Origin: Gammaproteobacteria bacterium
GTDB lineage: Bacteria > Pseudomonadota > Gammaproteobacteria > Steroidobacterales > JABDKV01
Length of the DNA: 63,067 bases
Assembly (NCBI GenBank): GCA_024638445.1
Contig: JAHEKH010000004.1
Span: 1 to 63,067, forward strand
Direction: 5' to 3'
Below, piece by piece: positions 27,683 to 34,814 of this stretch. Below the pieces are notes generated by a model. That model made no database searches and had not been told where the DNA came from. It saw nothing but the letters and a program-made list of their open reading frames with translations. Positions within the stretch are counted from its first letter, which is position 1. The number at the start of each line of letters is the position of its first letter. The translations under genes and the position numbers were made by a program.

Positions 27683-27852
27683 CCCCCGGGGCTTCGATCC
27701 CGATCCCGGCCCCTCGCCAGGCCAGCCCGATTCACCCCAAAAAACCGCCTTTCAGATGGCGAATTCCGTAGAGAAATTCTGAATTATTAGCAAAAACAAT
27801 CGCTTATGTCTTCGTTGCGATGCGGAACTTCGCCCACAAGACAGCATCCAAC

Positions 27853-27858
27853 TATAAC
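27853..27858 (+). promoter_or_regulatory. candidate -10 element (TATAAC) for the post-polA sRNA
   Basis: TATAAC about 7 nt before the predicted 5' end of a structured RNA; -35 match is weak. Confidence 0.4.
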
Positions 27859-27864
27859 GAGCGC

Positions 27865-27982
27865 CATCAACGACGCTCGCCCGCTACCCTCCCTGAGCGG
27901 GCAAGCGCCCGGCCACCCCATGCCGGGCAACAAGCTGCCCCGGTGCTATCCCCTACGTTTAAGGCACCGGGGCTCTTTTTTT
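27865..27982 (+). ncRNA. sX13-like small RNA candidate (three stem-loops with C-rich loops, ends in intrinsic terminator)
   Basis: stems 27874-27907 (loop ACCCTCCCTG), 27907-27928 (loop CACCCCAT) and 27937-27973 (loop contains TCCCC), then TCTTTTTTT; lies downstream of polA, as do Spot 42, ErsA and sX13. Confidence 0.75.
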
Positions 27983-28105
27983 CCTGGTCCGCCGGGCACC
28001 CACCGCTGTTTCTTCAGCCGCTCTGGACCGCGTCCAGTCTCCGTCGACGAGCCGCATCGTCGTCTATGCTTTTTTGCAGGACGAGCCGATTGCAGGGAGG
28101 TCGAC

Positions 28106-31100
28106 ATGACACGCTCCGCACTGCCAGGGATAGTTGCGTTGGTTCTGCTTGGCACAGCCGCGCACGCCGATCACCCCAGTCCGTATCCGTGGACACTGTC
28201 TACCTCGGATTTCGATTACGACATTTTTTTTGATGCATCGAACCCCTACGATTGCTCCTCCGGGGACGATGTGCCGTCTAATGCCGACGGCAATTTCATT
28301 TCCGTCGCCACCGCACAATGGATGGCCAACGCGCTGGACCGTCAGGGCAATGCCGTGCCGGGCTTCCCCGACGGCTATCACCCCGGCTATGTGAATCTCG
28401 GCTTTAAGGCACCGGACTTCAACGGCGAGGATGACGAGGTGCTCGTGTACGACTGCGCGCCGCGCGAGGACGGGCCGCATGAAGACGACGACTGCGACAG
28501 CGGCCGTGCCACTTTTACGCGCATCATCATGCCGTCGACGCTTTTTTGCTCCTCGTCGGAGCGCAACGTGCGCCGGGTCATGGGCCACGAGCTGTGGCAC
28601 CACGTCGAGCAGGCCTACTCGGACAAGTTCGGCGAATGGGGGAAAGTGGCCTGGGAAGGTACCGCCCGCATGATGGAAGACCAGGTGTACGACGATATTG
28701 ACGGCGATGACACGCTGAGATTCGACAACGAGGTAAACGGCTACCTGGGTAATCCCAACCAGGAGTTCTGGCGCAGCTCTTATCGCTCCGCGCTGGGGTG
28801 GAAATACATGGCCGAGCAGTACGGCACGGTCACCACCGAGCCCCAGGTCGGCGTCGATTTCATCCGCCAGTTCTGGGAGAACGTCGAGGCAAACGACGAC
28901 ACACCGGATCTGCCGGGCACGATCGAGCAGACCATTCAGGACTTCTCACCCAACACCAGTCTGCGTGAGTGGTTTCACGATTTCACGACCGCCAATCTTG
29001 CCCAGCAGTATGATGCCAGCGGTCTGCCGGACGCCGACAAGTTCACCTATATCGACAACAACGACGGAAACGGCACTGCTTTCGCGCCGGTCGGCCGCAC
29101 GTGGACGGGCAGCATTTTCTCCGCCGACTCTGCCGTCTCGGCGGTCGTGCGTTGGGGAGCGTCTTACTATGAAGCCGAAGGGACGTGTATTCCCGGCTGG
29201 TTCATGGGCTACCGGGCGCGCAATGCTGACGACGCACGGCACGCGCTTGCCGCGGTAACGCTATCCGATGAGGTCGGGCGGCTGATACGGGGTGGTGGCG
29301 AGGAGTTTGCGGTCGCCTTCCTGCAGCCGGACCCACCACTGTACAACCGCCTGGTGGCCGGCATCACGGCAGGCGACGACCAGATCGCCTTCAGCTACGA
29401 GTTCGACTGCGGCCCGGGCAGCATCGATATCGCGCTGCCCACCAGCCTCTATCCGACCTTTGTCGGCCCGCCCGATGATCCCCGTAACCTGATCGTGCGG
29501 CTGCGGGTCAACGGCCCGGACGGGCTGGGCGGGGCCTCGGTCGTCGGCCTGCAGAAAGAGGACTTCCAGGTCTATGTCGGCACGCTCGGCAACCCGGCCG
29601 ATGAGGCACAGGTGGTCGGTGGACGCGACGTGCTCGGCGAGTACTGGATCACGGTCAAGCCACCGGCAAAGGGCAACACCAATACCTACGACTTGCACGT
29701 TTCCATGGGTGGCGGCGTGCTGAGCATCGACGACTCCAGCGCGAACTCGGTCAGCTATGAAGAGAAATTGCTGGACCAGGTACTGGTAATCGACCGCTCG
29801 GGCAGCATGATCGTGCCCGTCGATGCGACGAAGCTGGAGGCCGCACAGAATGCCGCCAGCCTGTTTGTCGATATCAGCGCGGAAACCGACCGCATCGGGC
29901 TGGTCAGCTTCAGCAGCAACGCGGTAACTGATGCCACCCTGTCCGACGCGACCGGCACGCACAAGGACACCGTCAAGACCAAGCTCGCGGCGCTTACCGC
30001 GGCCGGTGGCACGTCGATCGGTGACGGTCTGGACGAGGGTGCCGACCAGCTGTTCCTCAACGGCGTTGGCGCAGGCGAAGACTGGCTGGTGCTGCTGAGC
30101 GACGGCGTCGAAACCGACCAGCTGTTCTGGGACAACGTCCAGGCCGGCATCGTCGCCCAGGGCGTGCGGATCAACACGATCGCGCTCGGCGCCGATGCCG
30201 ACCAGGTCCTGCTGCAGGATATCGCCAACACCACCGGCGGACAGTTTTACTTCGTCGACGCCAACAGCTTCCGCGGCGGTAGCGCCAGCGTTGCCAACGA
30301 ACTGGCCGACGTCTATGCCTCGAACCTTGAGGCCATGCGCGGTCATGAACGGCTGTGGGAAGTCTCCGGCCACCTGTTGACGGAAACCTCATTCGACATC
30401 GAGATCGAGGGCGACGGTCTCTCCGACATCAACCTGTTTTTCAACTGGGAGGATGCCGACGACACGCTCGACGTGGAAATCCTGCGCCCCGACGGCACGC
30501 CGGTCACTGACGGATCGAATGGCGCGAGCGTGGTCCACGAGGCCACCCACGTGGTGACGCAGCTGCCGGTGATGACCGCCGGCACCTGGACCGTAAATCT
30601 CACCGCCGATACCGGCTCGCCGCGCTACATAGGCATTCTCTCCGGTCGCGACACCCAGGGGCCGGAGCTCACCGTCCAGTTTGCACAGAACGATGATGAC
30701 GTGTTCTCCGAGATCGTCGGCGGCTACTACCTGCGTGGATTGCCGCAGCCGATCACTGCCACCCTGATCGATGACACCGGGGCGGTGACCGGCGCGCGGG
30801 TGCTCGCCTCCATAGAGCACCCCGATGGCACCGTCATCGACCTGCGGCTGTCGGACGACGGACTGCATGGCGATGGCGCGGCCAACGACGGGATCTATGC
30901 CAACCGTTATACCCGCACGACGGCATTCAGCTTGCCCGATCAGCCCGATGCACCGGGCAGCGGCTCACGCGGCAGCTACAACGTCAGCGTGACCGCCGGT
31001 GGCACGGACAACAACCAGAACGTGTTCAACCGGATTCGCAAAGGCACTTTCCAGGTGCTCGAGCTCGACGGCCTGAAGCCGGGAGCCGACCCGTCGGACG

Positions 31101-32527
31101 GCGACATGGACGGCATGCCGGATCGCTACGAGGTGCTGCACGACTGCCTCGACCCGGTCGTCGACGACGCCGCCGCGGATGAAGACCAGAACGGCATAAC
31201 CAACCTCGACGAGTACGAGGCGGGATTCGATCCCTGCCACCCCGACACGGACCGCGGCGGGGAATCCGACGTCTCGGAGCGAACGCGGGGCGCCAACCCG
31301 TTCGACCCGATCGATGACTTTCTGCCGCGGCTGATCGACGTCGAAATCGTGGACTACGTCTCCGAGCACCTCGACTTTCCGCGTGCCGATGACCTGCAGC
31401 CGAACTCGCTGCTGATCCGTTACCAGCTCAAACCCCAGTATCACCAGATGCGCCTGCTGCGCCGGTCGTTCGGTCCCACTTTTACCGAGGTGGCGGTATT
31501 CGACCCCCATGCCGAGGGCGGTCTGTATCGCGACACCGGGCTGATCAACAATATTCTTTACGAGTACCGGTTACAGCCGATCGATATCAACGGTTTCGAG
31601 GGAACGCCGAGCCACATCATCTCTGGCGTACCAAAGCTCGACCCGGTACCGCCGATCGGCAGCGTGCTGATCAACCACGGTCAACAGACGACTACCGGCA
31701 CACTCGTCAACCTGTCCCTGTCGGCATCGGCCGGAACTACCGAAGTCAAGATTTCCAACGACCCGAACCTCGACGATGACACCTGGGACGTCTTCGATAG
31801 CCCCTTTATCTCCTGGGGTGTCGATCCCGATCCCGTCAGCGGCGAGGCAACCGTCTACGTGCAATACCGCGACGGCGCCGGCAACGTTTCGCCCAGCGTC
31901 TACGAAGATTCGATAACCGTGGTGGACGGTAACGCCGTTGGCACGATAACCGGCAATGTCTATCTGGGTGCCGCCCGGGGCGGCCCGGTCCCCGCCGAGG
32001 GCATCACCCTCGTGCCGGATGGCCCCGGCGACAACTGGCCCGAGTTCACGCGCTCAAACGGCTTCTACGTGATTCGCAACCTCGAGCCCGGCACGTATGA
32101 CCTCACCGCGCACTACCCGAACTACGAGTCAGAGACCCTATCCGGCGTGGTGGTCGTGCAAAACGGTACAACCAGCTTGCGTGACATCATTCTCGGCGCG
32201 GCCGATACCGATGGCGACGGCGTCGCCGACATCGCAGATAACTGCAGCCTGGAGGCAAATAACCGCCAGCACGACACCGACGCCGACGGCTTTGGCAACG
32301 CCTGCGATCTCGACCTGAACAACGACTGCACCGTCAATTTCCTCGATCTCTCCATGTTCGAGACAGTGTTCTTCACCAGCGATCCCGATGCCGACACAAA
32401 CCAGGACGGCACGGTGAACTTCCTCGACCTGATCGTCATGGAGCAATTGTTCTTTGGCCCACCCGGCCCGAGCGGGATTCCGACCGTCTGCGATCAAGCG
32501 GGGCACGCCGACCGACCGCACCACTAG
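28106..32527 (+). CDS. large secreted multidomain protein: HExxH metallopeptidase, VWA, choice-of-anchor-X-like, Ca-binding repeats, FN3-like, carboxypeptidase-regulatory-like, TSP3/dockerin-like tail
   Basis: GGGAGG RBS and signal peptide at ATG 28106; GHELWHHVE plus WEGTA; VIDRSGSM MIDAS with LLSDG; DDGLHGDGAANDGIY; DGDMDGMPD; DLNNDCTVNFLDL...DTNQDGTVNFLDL. Confidence 0.88.
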   Translation: MTRSALPGIVALVLLGTAAHADHPSPYPWTLSTSDFDYDIFFDASNPYDCSSGDDVPSNADGNFISVATAQWMANALDRQGNAVPGFPDGYHPGYVNLGFKAPDFNGEDDEVLVYDCAPREDGPHEDDDCDSGRATFTRIIMPSTLFCSSSERNVRRVMGHELWHHVEQAYSDKFGEWGKVAWEGTARMMEDQVYDDIDGDDTLRFDNEVNGYLGNPNQEFWRSSYRSALGWKYMAEQYGTVTTEPQVGVDFIRQFWENVEANDDTPDLPGTIEQTIQDFSPNTSLREWFHDFTTANLAQQYDASGLPDADKFTYIDNNDGNGTAFAPVGRTWTGSIFSADSAVSAVVRWGASYYEAEGTCIPGWFMGYRARNADDARHALAAVTLSDEVGRLIRGGGEEFAVAFLQPDPPLYNRLVAGITAGDDQIAFSYEFDCGPGSIDIALPTSLYPTFVGPPDDPRNLIVRLRVNGPDGLGGASVVGLQKEDFQVYVGTLGNPADEAQVVGGRDVLGEYWITVKPPAKGNTNTYDLHVSMGGGVLSIDDSSANSVSYEEKLLDQVLVIDRSGSMIVPVDATKLEAAQNAASLFVDISAETDRIGLVSFSSNAVTDATLSDATGTHKDTVKTKLAALTAAGGTSIGDGLDEGADQLFLNGVGAGEDWLVLLSDGVETDQLFWDNVQAGIVAQGVRINTIALGADADQVLLQDIANTTGGQFYFVDANSFRGGSASVANELADVYASNLEAMRGHERLWEVSGHLLTETSFDIEIEGDGLSDINLFFNWEDADDTLDVEILRPDGTPVTDGSNGASVVHEATHVVTQLPVMTAGTWTVNLTADTGSPRYIGILSGRDTQGPELTVQFAQNDDDVFSEIVGGYYLRGLPQPITATLIDDTGAVTGARVLASIEHPDGTVIDLRLSDDGLHGDGAANDGIYANRYTRTTAFSLPDQPDAPGSGSRGSYNVSVTAGGTDNNQNVFNRIRKGTFQVLELDGLKPGADPSDGDMDGMPDRYEVLHDCLDPVVDDAAADEDQNGITNLDEYEAGFDPCHPDTDRGGESDVSERTRGANPFDPIDDFLPRLIDVEIVDYVSEHLDFPRADDLQPNSLLIRYQLKPQYHQMRLLRRSFGPTFTEVAVFDPHAEGGLYRDTGLINNILYEYRLQPIDINGFEGTPSHIISGVPKLDPVPPIGSVLINHGQQTTTGTLVNLSLSASAGTTEVKISNDPNLDDDTWDVFDSPFISWGVDPDPVSGEATVYVQYRDGAGNVSPSVYEDSITVVDGNAVGTITGNVYLGAARGGPVPAEGITLVPDGPGDNWPEFTRSNGFYVIRNLEPGTYDLTAHYPNYESETLSGVVVVQNGTTSLRDIILGAADTDGDGVADIADNCSLEANNRQHDTDADGFGNACDLDLNNDCTVNFLDLSMFETVFFTSDPDADTNQDGTVNFLDLIVMEQLFFGPPGPSGIPTVCDQAGHADRPHH

Positions 32528-32538
32528 GGGAAACAAAG

Positions 32539-33481
32539 ATCGCGGCTGGAAGCCGCTGCTACGGCCTTATTCGCCAAAGCCTAAGCGAGAGAGCTGCCGG
32601 TGCCTTTCTTTGATGACGTCAGATCCTCGGCACCAAAGAGAGGTGCCGGCAGATCGCTCGCGCAATCTCGCAATCAATGAACACTGTGCGGACTTCACCC
32701 CAGCGGCGAAACCGGGGAATCGCGGCTGGAAGCCGCTGCTACGGCCTTATTCGCCAAAGCCTAAGCGAGAGAGCTGCCGGTGCCTTTCTTTGGTGACGTC
32801 AGATCCTCGGCACCAAAGAGAGGTGCCGGCAGATCGCTCGCGCAATCTCGCAATCAATGAACACTGTGCGGACTTCACCCCAGCGGCGAAACCGGGGAAT
32901 CGCGGCTGGAAGCCGCTGCTACGGCCTTATTCGCCAAAGCCTAAGCGAGAGAGCTGCCGGTGCCTTTCTTTGATGACGTCAGATCCTCGGCAGCAATGAA
33001 AGGTACCGGCAGATCGCTCGCGCAATCTCGGAACAAATCCTAAGGGATCGCGGCTGATAGCCGCTCCTGCGCCGGTCGTAATCGCGATGACCTCAGCGAG
33101 AGAGCTGTCGGTGCCTTTTCTTGATGACGTCAGATCCTCGGCAGCAAGAAAAGGTGCCGGCAGATCGCTCGCGCAATCTCGGAACAAATCCTAAGGGATC
33201 GCGGCTGATAGCCGCTCCTGCGCCGGTCGTAATCGCGATGACCTCAGCGAGAGAGCTGTCGGTGCCTTTTCTTGATGACGTCAGATCCTCGGCAGCAAGA
33301 AAAGGTGCCGGCAGATCACTCGCGCAATCTCGGAACAAAGCCCAAGGGATCGCGGCTGCCAGCCACTCCCGCGCCGGTCGTAATCACGATGGCCTCAGCG
33401 AGAGAGCTGCCGGTGCCTTTCTTTGATGACGTCAGATCCTCGGCACCAAAGAGAGGTGCCGGCAGATCGCTCGCGCAATCT
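32539..33481 (+). repeat. six-unit tandem array (periods 180,180,148,151,151 bp) of a REP-like palindrome plus a 77-nt hairpin
   Basis: units start at 32539, 32719, 32899, 33047, 33198 and 33349; hairpins start at 32585, 32765, 32945, 33096, 33247 and 33398. Confidence 0.95.
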
Positions 33482-33508
33482 AGCAAAAGGAGAACCGCGG
33501 AAGCCGGG

Positions 33509-34096
33509 TCAGAGCCCCATCATGCGGGCGAGGGTGGCGCGGGCCTCACCGACGCCCTGCTTCGAGTGTGCCGAAAAGAGCTGCGCGGTGACGGTGTCGC
33601 CCAACTCGCGGCGCACGCCGAGCAGCGTGCTGGCGGCCTTGCCCCGGCTGAGCTTGTCCGCCTTCGTCAGCAACGCGTGCACCGGGCAGTCATAGGCCAA
33701 CGCCCAGTCCAGCATCCGCTCGTCGAATTCCGTCAGCGGCCGCCGCACGTCCATCACCAGGAACAACCCCTCGAGGCTGCGCCGCCGGCTGAAATAGGCC
33801 TCCATGAGCACCCGCCAGTGCCGCCGCATCTTTTCCGGCACCTTGGCATAGCCATAGCCCGGCAGGTCCACCAGCCGGTGCGACCCGTCAATCTCGAAAA
33901 AGTTGATCAGCTGCGTGCGGCCTGGCGTCTTGCTGATCCGGGCCAGCTGCTTCTGCCCCGCAATGACGTTGATCGCGCTGGATTTCCCGGCATTCGAGCG
34001 GCCGGCGAAGGCCACCTCCAGACCCTTGTCGGGCAGGAAATCGCCCGGTTGCCAGGCACTCTGCAGAAAACGGGCTTTCTGGAAGGGATTCGACAT
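33509..34096 (-). CDS. engB: ribosome biogenesis GTPase YihA/YsxC
   Basis: [28 protein letters not shown]. Confidence 0.97.
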
Positions 34097-34211
34097 ATCG
34101 GCTTCAGTTCCGGTCCCGGGGCGCGATAAACCGCCTCGATAGTGTAAAATCTCGCGGCCCGCGGCGGGGCGGCAGTCTATCGCCTCCATGCCGCATTGGA
34201 AAGGAGCTCGC

Positions 34212-34814
34212 ATGATCAGGACTGCTGCAGTAATTGGATTGACGTTTTGCCTCACCGCCACCGGCTGGGCCGAGGGCGACCCCGAGGCTGGTCAGGCCAA
34301 GGCAACGCCCTGTGCGGCCTGCCATGGTGCCGACGGTAACAGCGTCAATCCCGAGTGGCCGAGCATCGCCGGTCAGCACGCGGGCTATATCGTCAAGCAG
34401 CTGGAAGCGTACAAGAACGGCGACCGGGTCAACGCCCTGATGACCGCGATGGCCATGCCGCTGGACGACCAGGACCGCGCCGACCTCGCGGCCTATTATT
34501 CCAGCCAGTCGTTGACCCCGAAGACCGCGGACCCCGAGCTGGCGGAAGCCGGCGAGAAGCTGTACCGCGGCGGCAACCCGGCAACTGGCGTCGCCGCCTG
34601 CACCGCCTGTCACGGACCCACCGGGCGCGGCGTCCCCGGCGCGATGATGCCCCGCATTGCCGGCCAGCACGCAGCCTACAGCGCCATGCAGCTGAAACTC
34701 TATGCTGCCGGCGAGCGAAGCACCGACAAGGACCAGATGATGCGAAACGTCGCGTCGGCTATGAGCGAAGCCGAGATCGCGGCAGTTTCGGCCTATATTC
34801 AGGGACTTCGCTAA
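34212..34814 (+). CDS. cytochrome c4 (dihaem)
   Basis: signal peptide, CAACH and CTACH; AAGGAG RBS; divergent from engB as in many Gammaproteobacteria. Confidence 0.93.

Follow-up and report, generated by a model that had tools for sequence, protein, structure and literature searches.

Does an array of well-folding hairpins between two bacterial genes specify an RNA peculiar to that locus, or is it part of something larger? The question is raised by the window analysed here, a stretch of 63,067 nucleotides from a gammaproteobacterial genome, in which positions 32539-33481 are occupied by six tandem units, each running in the order repetitive extragenic palindrome (REP), linker, 77-nt hairpin and tail. 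The original prediction had placed a six-unit array at these same positions, which is confirmed, and had suggested that it could be an array of non-coding RNAs (ncRNAs) or a device in the 3' untranslated region (3'-UTR) of the upstream gene. A locus-specific reading gives way to one of a dispersed family: the hairpin occurs at 50 loci in at least 88 copies, and the array is one cluster of a composite repeat that is specific to the genus. As described below, the orientation of the hairpin follows replication, not transcription, and the repeat, which resembles the bacterial interspersed mosaic elements (BIMEs) and is linked to REPs and to REP-associated tyrosine transposases (RAYTs), is probably handled as single-stranded DNA (ssDNA) at the replication fork.

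Dispersal of the composite repeat

In the window's own genome (3.04 Mb in 208 contigs, 82% complete, 62.9% G+C), BLAST recovered 81 hairpin loci on 43 contigs when an alignment of 60 or more of the 81 nt was required, and with partial copies included the hairpins, at least 88 in number, fall into 50 arrays. These comprise 28 singles, 11 doubles, eight triples, two arrays of four and a single array of six, that at 32539-33481, which is the largest local cluster of a genome-wide repeat. Within each of the 22 multi-copy arrays all copies are co-oriented. Diverged copies overlooked by BLAST exist, two on contig C143 being examples. Arrays often lie at contig ends in this genome and, as a point for annotation, such arrays account for many contig breaks in the genomes of the genus. 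The anatomy of the unit comprises a RAYT-type REP (ATCGCGGCTGGAAGCCGCTCC, whose foot on the other strand is G[T/C]AG), then a short linker, a hairpin of 77-81 nt with a conserved CCGG box and a GGYGAC...CGGARCC apex, and a tail; arrays open and close with a REP.

The small palindrome of each unit (ATCGCGGCTGGAAGCCGC..., with a GCGGCT/AGCCGC stem and a 3-nt loop) had been called REP-like, and it is a true REP. A scan of the genome with its 21-nt core, allowing up to four substitutions, gave 117 matches compared with one in shuffled sequence. Within 250 nt of a hairpin array lie 67 of these REPs, 66 of them co-oriented with the hairpin; 50 are standalone, 10 of which are inside called genes, and nine inverted doublets with the geometry of REPINs occur among the standalone copies. 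The REP foot, on the complementary strand, is GTAG in 32 copies and GCAG in 40, together 72 of the 117, the feet in the window being GTAG in units 1-3, GCAG in units 4 and 5 and GCGG in unit 6. Across the three other species of the genus the core has 205, 29 and 6 matches at up to three mismatches, and in two of these species, G003 and G002, REPs lie in inverted orientation around a RAYT gene, with six to the left and two to the right in G003 and four to the left and one to the right in G002. These RAYT genes score 127.8 (G003) and 124.2 (G002) bits against the NCBIfam RayT model NF047646, for which the cut-off is 80. All the marks of the REP class are thus present, namely the 5' tetranucleotide foot, a high and mostly intergenic copy number and, in sister species, a flanked RAYT gene. 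The original prediction had named an ordinary REP/BIME family, with copies dispersed in both orientations beside a RAYT gene, as the finding that would speak against it. Most of this picture is what we see, as the copies are dispersed and joined to REPs that flank RAYT genes in sister species.

Two further observations concern REPs and transposases. The G003 genome contains many direct tandem arrays of the same REP with periods of 36-68 nt (for example C31:24351-24575, C19:17354-17446 and C92:10033-10407), with no long hairpin between the listed copies. In the window's own genome a Y1 transposase gene of 215 aa lies in an AT-richer patch at C172:19291-19938 (locus L031 1462-2109), flanked by direct repeats of ~50-90 nt on each side and by inverted GGGGTCGGACC/GGTCCGACCCC motifs. 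As the enzyme of the arrays it was set aside, as it scores below the RayT cut-off and its flanking repeats are unrelated; gene and repeats may represent a second, unrelated REP-like system.

A broader covariance model of the hairpin (E <= 0.001) found 21 matches in G001, 45 in G002 and 11 in G003, the three other species of the genus, and none in G004, which represents the sister genus. GCGAG base, CCGG box and GGYGAC...CGGARCC apex are all conserved in the homologues of sister species, whose stems differ yet pair, and the order REP, linker, hairpin is common to the copies of G001 and G002. Further afield, the hairpin model had no match in 150 genomes representing one per family across the class, nor the first hairpin model in 146 genomes from other families of the same order, and since both searches used strict filters with 30 candidates scored per genome the result is to be read as 'not found in those searched'. 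A BLAST search of 60 relatives with the hairpin also gave no match, within a limit of sensitivity, as covariance models later found the copies in the genus. In a pattern scan of genome contigs only one of 80 loci listed, from at least 118 stretches, passes the covariance model; its hairpin is the same as a G002 copy, and the scan is uninformative on wider distribution. Comparison of the unit by blastn with plasmid and phage collections gave no match, and exact scans of metagenome contigs gave none for the locus-unique tail described below or for the subfamily-I apex. The sequencing runs listed for the locus are five sediment metagenomes, all of DNA. Many metagenome contigs from four of these runs share the REP core at 32539-32562 and 32899-32925 and then diverge into unrelated sequence, which indicates that the REP is widespread at other loci or in other organisms of the sediment samples.

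Structure and orientation of the hairpin

In each unit the hairpin has the sequence GCGAGAGAGCTG(C/T)CGG...CCGGCAGATC(G/A)CTCGC around the apex ACGTCAGATCCTCGG. This loop had been described as invariant, and it is indeed identical in all six copies of the window; genome-wide, however, there are two hairpin subfamilies with different apices (64 and 14 copies), the second of which has GACTAAGTTCCCCCGGAA. The differences between units on which the original prediction was built are all present: the paired stem changes (TTCTTTG/CAAAGAG in units 1, 2 and 6, TTTCTTG/CAAGAAA in units 4 and 5), the U.G to U-A changes of unit 3 and the small GGTCGT...ATG(A/G)CC hairpin of units 4-6. Both strands of the hairpin fold far better than shuffled sequence, the plus strand being the better of the two. 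Folded as RNA, the plus strand gave -46.6 (z -6.05) and -43.8 kcal/mol and the minus strand -40.6 and -33.0; folded as DNA, the values were -27.8 and -29.1 kcal/mol for the plus strand and -20.8 and -18.5 for the minus strand, the z score of the latter being -3.2 to -3.9.

The window's own genome holds 78 full-length hairpins, 60 of them unique, and covariation was tested within the genome on an alignment of 53 unique copies with a 32-pair stem. In this alignment 92.6% of stem cells are paired and two-sided change occurs at 10 stem pairs. The cells with two-sided change number 86 compared with 25.4 in shuffles, none of 500 shuffles reaching 86, and the covariation score is 0.194, the controls giving 0.114 (shuffled alignments) and no more than 0.110 (slid partners). 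Across species, in an alignment of 29 sequences, two-sided change preserves pairing at 17 of the 21 predicted pairs, and in a comparison of three species the CGG/CCG boxes and the GAC...CGG apex are invariant while the stems between the boxes change. The proposal that the structure is under selection is therefore upheld, as covariation in the larger alignment exceeds both controls and is seen again across three species; compensatory change maintains the hairpin. Truncated copies were also seen in the window's own genome (C73:6333-6359, C114:23452-23541, C201:3759-3797 and C20:569-602), consisting of the 3' arm alone or of the 5' arm joined to the linker at the common CCGG(T) motif, and these resemble internal deletions of the palindrome.

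The strand-specific wobbles that had been taken as a sign of RNA are equally real. On the plus strand, non-Watson-Crick cells comprise 177 G.U and 15 A.C, a contrast that weakens to 20 versus 11 when distinct pair states are counted, and in 59 of the 60 unique copies it is the plus strand that folds better (mean -50.4 versus -41.0 kcal/mol). It should be emphasized that much of the G.U asymmetry derives from a conserved tandem U.G/G.U at stem positions 17-18 together with two polymorphic positions, and that this tandem wobble of the plus strand is a 2x2 A.C/C.A mismatch on the minus strand. The E. coli enzyme TnpA-REP is described as needing a stem mismatch in its REP (PMC3333891), and thus strand asymmetry alone is no pointer to RNA. 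More generally, an RNA gene is not proved by covariation and G.U asymmetry on their own, since ssDNA hairpins of mobile repeats give the same signal.

The relation of the arrays to genes was established with a home-made gene caller (2392 genes, 88% coding). Where both neighbours were called (32 arrays), 16 arrays lie between convergent, 14 between co-directional and two between divergent genes, and arrays thus favour gene 3' ends. At the 14 co-directional arrays the plus strand of the hairpin is antisense to both genes in nine cases and sense in five. In a check limited to the 28 open reading frames (ORFs) beside these arrays, Pfam confirmed 23, and the subset in which both neighbours are confirmed contains seven antisense and three sense arrays. 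Promoter-like sites are absent, and there is one terminator-like site compared with 1.5 expected by chance. The whole window has no match to Rfam 15 at gathering score, the best match in 32000-34000, to mir-9, scoring 26.1 bits where 58.6 is the gathering score (E 0.059).

Orientation relative to replication is, in contrast, nearly uniform. With GC skew computed over up to 15 kb of flank on each side and at least 8 kb in total, the plus strand of the hairpin lies on the C-rich strand at 38 of 39 arrays (binomial p 1.5e-10), and at 31 of 31 when |skew| exceeds 0.02. The replication component of the skew at third codon positions (GC3), obtained by separating the genes of each strand, agrees in 37 of 42 arrays; the balance of coding-strand length matches hairpin orientation in only 21 of 39. 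The sign of the skew was checked on the contig of the rplN operon, where the coding strand is G-rich (+0.028), and more weakly on that of dnaN (+0.008). Standalone REPs have no skew bias (20 of 41 overall). The result is replicated in G002, where the plus strand is on the C-rich side at 24 of 24 loci on 14 contigs (p 1.2e-7) and orientation is uniform on all nine contigs with two or more loci. The G002 test used flanks of 7.6-36 kb, one of them common to two loci, counted C1 and C2 as one locus, and omitted weaker opposite-strand matches of the same elements as well as two weak hits (C42:30087 and C25:70170), which are oriented as the other copies on their contigs. The two species together give 62 of 63 loci. 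Reading the direction of the fork from GC skew has published precedent (PMC3971601). Thus, hairpin orientation follows replication, not transcription, and the G-rich strand, which is the lagging-strand template, carries both the G[T/C]AG guide of the REP and the weaker, mismatch-bearing form of the hairpin. A transcription-linked RNA sits poorly with orientations that track GC skew in both species and with a plus strand that is antisense to both neighbours at nine of 14 arrays; with its near-uniform orientation relative to replication, the repeat looks like DNA of a selfish or structural kind and not like a single RNA gene.

Explanations of the polarity

The account we consider probable is that of a BIME-like, REP/RAYT-linked composite repeat handled as ssDNA at the replication fork. 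Units would be processed there by a Y1 (RAYT) transposase, as in the IS200/IS605 insertion sequences and in the model for E. coli BIMEs; cleavage within or next to REPs and linkers would release or insert REP-bounded units, and new loci would be seeded next to existing REPs. Local tandem duplication might then build arrays such as the six-unit one, the hairpin would be kept because its folding as ssDNA is needed for propagation or persistence, and effects on neighbouring mRNAs would be a by-product. Among the grounds for this account are the location of the guide strand on the lagging-strand template and the model of Ton-Hoang and co-workers, which in outline has ssDNA circles excised from tandem BIMEs on the lagging-strand template, with cuts at C|T in inverted REPs and linkers (PMC3333891). 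In the same source TnpA-REP requires the 5' GTAG and the stem mismatch and cuts at C|T in linkers. IS200/IS605 elements are described as replication-biased (PMC3971601), their active strand being the lagging-strand template (PMC3333891, PMC6006769), as is the guide-bearing strand here.

Comparison of the copies indicates how arrays have grown. Hairpin identity is 0.932 within arrays (54 pairs) and 0.854 between arrays (2949 pairs), several arrays are made up of identical units, and a 53-nt tail in units 1 and 2 of the six-unit array occurs twice there and nowhere else in the genome, all of which points to local tandem duplication as the main route. Three of 19 multi-copy arrays interleave both subfamilies, at 71-77% identity, indicative of separate insertions next to existing units.

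Several points weigh against handling as ssDNA at the fork. Mobility is inferred and not seen, and there is no target duplication. The enzyme is also elusive: tblastn with the G003 RAYT had no match in the 82%-complete genome, whose sole Y1 gene, at 66.7 bits, falls short of the RayT cut-off of 80 and is flanked by other repeats. Standalone one-way REPs are unpolarised (10 of 18 loci), which argues that REP processing alone does not impose the polarity, and the better-folding plus-strand hairpin is not on the lagging-strand template, the opposite of what would be expected if the stability of the active-strand hairpin mattered. Replication direction was deduced from the GC skew of unordered contigs rather than read off a closed genome, and the polarity could have arisen after insertion, by selection. 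A bolder version of the idea, which we regard as rather unlikely, is that the hairpin, more than a passenger, constitutes a new module dependent on the replication fork, be it a non-autonomous ssDNA element that lands on REPs and enters at the fork or a domesticated polar signal that is read on one template strand, in which a built-in G.T/A.C asymmetry would set which strand may fold. If so, the 62/63 polarity, the covarying stem and the invariant apex would mark a mechanism undescribed for REP-type repeats.

It could be argued that the polarity reflects survivorship. Either orientation might arise, with the one that places the stable hairpin strand on the lagging-strand template being deleted or harmful, so that only the observed orientation persists; the G.T-versus-A.C asymmetry would make the two orientations unequal. 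This explains the polarity as well as the account we favour. As DNA the plus strand is 7-10 kcal/mol more stable than the minus strand, it is the weaker form of the hairpin that lies on the G-rich strand, the lagging-strand template, in both the window's own genome and G002, truncated copies such as those on C73, C114 and C201 resemble internal hairpin deletions, and short standalone REPs, which have little to lose, are unpolarised. The explanation leans on a 1991 study in which Trinh and Sinden reportedly saw orientation-dependent lagging-strand deletion of asymmetric palindromes in E. coli. However, the minus-strand hairpin is itself still very stable as DNA, the energy gap is modest for a polarity of 62/63, and the constant linkage to one REP orientation and the conserved apex are left unexplained. 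Survivorship, which we regard as rather unlikely, can also act alongside ssDNA handling at the fork rather than in its place. Less probable again, judged from sequence, is an RNA-level element in which the plus-strand hairpin would act as a 3'-UTR stabilizer, a processing site or a multicopy ncRNA. Such an element would fit the excess of G.U over A.C, the better folding of the plus strand, the covariation within and between species and the preference for gene 3' ends (16 of 32 arrays convergent, two divergent). The G.U excess moreover looks selected, in that the mutation pressure inferred for the C-rich strand (G to A, T to C) would yield A.C rather than G.U, and REP, ERIC and bcr1 repeats are variously reported to act on or fold as RNA (PMC3184786). 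Against this, the plus strand is antisense to both neighbours at nine of 14 arrays, or seven of 10 with Pfam-confirmed genes, and orientation tracks replication (38/39; 24/24) and not gene strand (21/39). Promoter-like sites and Rfam matches are absent and terminator-like sites no commoner than by chance, the asymmetry depends largely on four stem positions (20 G.U versus 11 A.C distinct states), and the tandem wobble is equally well read as a conserved 2x2 mismatch on the other strand.

A host-domesticated polar DNA site, in which a host protein would bind the hairpin or its CCGG and apex motifs in the service of replication, segregation or topology, is loosely comparable to BIME-gyrase and BIME-IHF sites or to strand-skewed motifs such as KOPS and Chi. 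It would account for a near-absolute polarity kept in two species, for boxes and an apex that are invariant over three species while the stems change, and for the persistence of the element while the species of the genus diverged; binding of REPs and BIMEs by IHF, Pol I and gyrase has been cited (PMC6006769). We nevertheless think it very unlikely, as copy number is uneven across the species at the thresholds used (at least 88, 45, 21 and 11), arrays of one to six units with many decayed copies are typical of selfish repeats, there is no candidate binding protein, and the element was not found outside one genus in the genomes searched. Finally, the six-fold structure could in part be an assembly artefact, short reads from dispersed copies having been mis-joined. 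Many members of the family do lie at contig ends, and Logan contigs from the four sediment-metagenome runs are too fragmented to span the array, some bins being without cover and the depth of repeat pieces summing many loci, so that the copy number of six is without independent confirmation from them. One 411-nt Logan contig (32203-32613), however, crosses the left-hand junction, starting in the unique gene and reaching the first REP and hairpin, the locus-unique tail is present twice, and similar arrays exist at 22 loci here and in sister genomes. An artefact is accordingly most improbable, and would alter copy number only, not the nature of the element.

REPs, BIMEs and REPINs are among the commonest bacterial repeats, and their spread is still mostly inferred. 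A REP permanently coupled to a long, maintained hairpin whose orientation in two species follows the replication strand almost perfectly offers a clean natural test system for whether RAYT-type processing takes place on the lagging-strand template, for the role of stem mismatches and for the growth of tandem arrays.

The array, its neighbours and known systems

Tandem Repeats Finder resolves the array into a left part (32539-33030, period 180, 2.7 copies, 98% matches) and a right part (32940-33481, period 151, 3.6 copies, 93% matches). All six units are on the plus strand, with linkers of type A in units 1-3 and of type B, which contains the small GGTCGT/ATGACC hairpin, in units 4-6. Unit 1 (180 nt, 32539-32718) consists of the REP at 32539-32563, linker A at 32564-32584, the hairpin at 32585-32661 and the tail at 32662-32718; unit 2 (180 nt, 32719-32898) has the same parts at 32719-32743, 32744-32764, 32765-32841 and 32842-32898, its hairpin being 99% identical to that of unit 1. 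Unit 3 (148 nt, 32899-33046) has its REP at 32899-32923, linker A at 32924-32944, hairpin at 32945-33021 and a short tail at 33022-33046. REP, linker B, hairpin and tail lie at 33047-33071, 33072-33095, 33096-33172 and 33173-33197 in unit 4 (151 nt, 33047-33197) and at 33198-33222, 33223-33246, 33247-33323 and 33324-33348 in unit 5 (151 nt, 33198-33348). Unit 6 (33349-33481) comprises the REP at 33349-33373, linker B at 33374-33397, a hairpin at 33398-33474 that is identical to that of unit 1, and the start of the tail at 33475-33481.

Two genes converge on the array, and both are as originally described. Upstream, a long secreted-type ORF of 1573 aa with VWA, CarboxypepD_reg and TSP_3 domains runs on the plus strand from 27806 to 32527; downstream, on the minus strand, the gene for the ribosome-biogenesis GTPase YihA/YsxC (EngB) occupies 33509-34261, its stop codon ~30 nt from the array. 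In G002 and G003 polA and engB are direct neighbours, so that in this species the array and the large VWA/metalloprotease-like gene seem to have been inserted. Just downstream of polA, at 27790-27985 on the plus strand, is an element of ~190 nt that ends in a GCACCGGGGCTC-TTTTTTT terminator; the polA-engB spacers of G002 and G003 contain a strongly conserved counterpart. Rfam gave no hit to it at gathering score in the window, and none in the polA-engB spacer of the sister genomes. It sits at the place of Spot 42 in E. coli, and by its sequence looks like an undescribed small RNA (sRNA) gene. The called ATG of the long ORF is inside this conserved sRNA-like element, the first ~180 nt overlapping it, and the true start of the ORF is therefore probably after about 27985.

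How does the repeat compare with known systems? The hairpin arms are inverted repeats, but a MITE (a transposable element of the miniature inverted-repeat type) was set aside, as the flanks of 75 aligned hairpins are conserved linker (...CC[TC]CA) and tail (TCTCGC...) with no duplicated target. A search of the 82%-complete genome for a full-length insertion sequence with the same ends, which covered Y1_Tnp and IS110-type (DEDD) genes, gave one match for the former, that with unrelated flanks, and none for the latter. A CRISPR array was likewise set aside, in that the segments between hairpins are themselves repeats (REP, linker and tail) common to different loci; cas genes were not searched for. 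Sites of the integron attC type are strand-selective ssDNA hairpins in arrays, and were set aside as no ORF cassettes lie between the hairpins here. ERIC sequences are structured intergenic repeats with compensatory changes. The bcr1 repeats similarly resemble the present element, being described as dispersed intergenic imperfect palindromes of ~100-150 nt with compensatory changes, for which structures at the RNA level are discussed (PMC3184786). ERIC and bcr1 are MITE-like single insertions, some with direct-repeat flanks, and not REP-linked tandem arrays, and no report of replication polarity was found in the portion of their literature consulted.

The analogy drawn above is with IS200/IS605 elements, whose hairpins are recognized as ssDNA on one strand, and which act on the lagging-strand template and exhibit an orientation bias by GC skew, without terminal inverted repeats or target duplication (PMC3971601, PMC6006769). 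The fork-relative orientation seen here (38 of 39 arrays; 24 of 24 loci in G002) is of this kind. Unlike IS200/IS605, the unit has no transposase, no IS200/IS605 ends or TnpB/omega-RNA features were identified in it, and membership is not claimed. In Pseudomonas fluorescens SBW25 (Bertels and Rainey 2011) the GI-GIII REP arrays are, from their description, highly ordered and direct with a long period, as here, spacings of 112 and 72 bp giving a 184-bp period (PMC3116915). They run forward at ~2 Mb and in reverse at ~4 Mb, symmetrically about the origin (PMC3116915), which implies a replication polarity. They belong, however, to another organism with other sequences, and are described as two REP groups rather than as a REP and a long hairpin, the comparison being by description only (PMC3116915).

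Equally close is E. coli BIME-2 with TnpA-REP, in which extragenic tandem mosaics of REPs and conserved linkers vary in copy number between loci, copies within one locus are well conserved, and the REP, with its 5' tetranucleotide foot, lies beside a Y1 transposase gene (PMC3333891), as in G002 and G003 here. Tandem units, conserved linkers and a locus-variable copy number are likewise found in the present repeat, with one to six units and identities of 0.93 within and 0.85 between arrays. In contrast, E. coli BIMEs alternate REP and inverted REP, whereas 66 of 67 array REPs here are co-oriented and all 22 multi-copy arrays are direct; BIMEs also lack a long hairpin, while the linker here holds one of 77-81 nt with its own apex and a covarying stem. 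Near-absolute replication polarity was not reported for BIMEs in the parts of their literature consulted, and a literature search, which was not exhaustive, found no description of a REP-linked covarying hairpin with such polarity. Thus, the element is a REP/BIME-type repeat in a new form, in which direct REPs are coupled to a long covarying hairpin.

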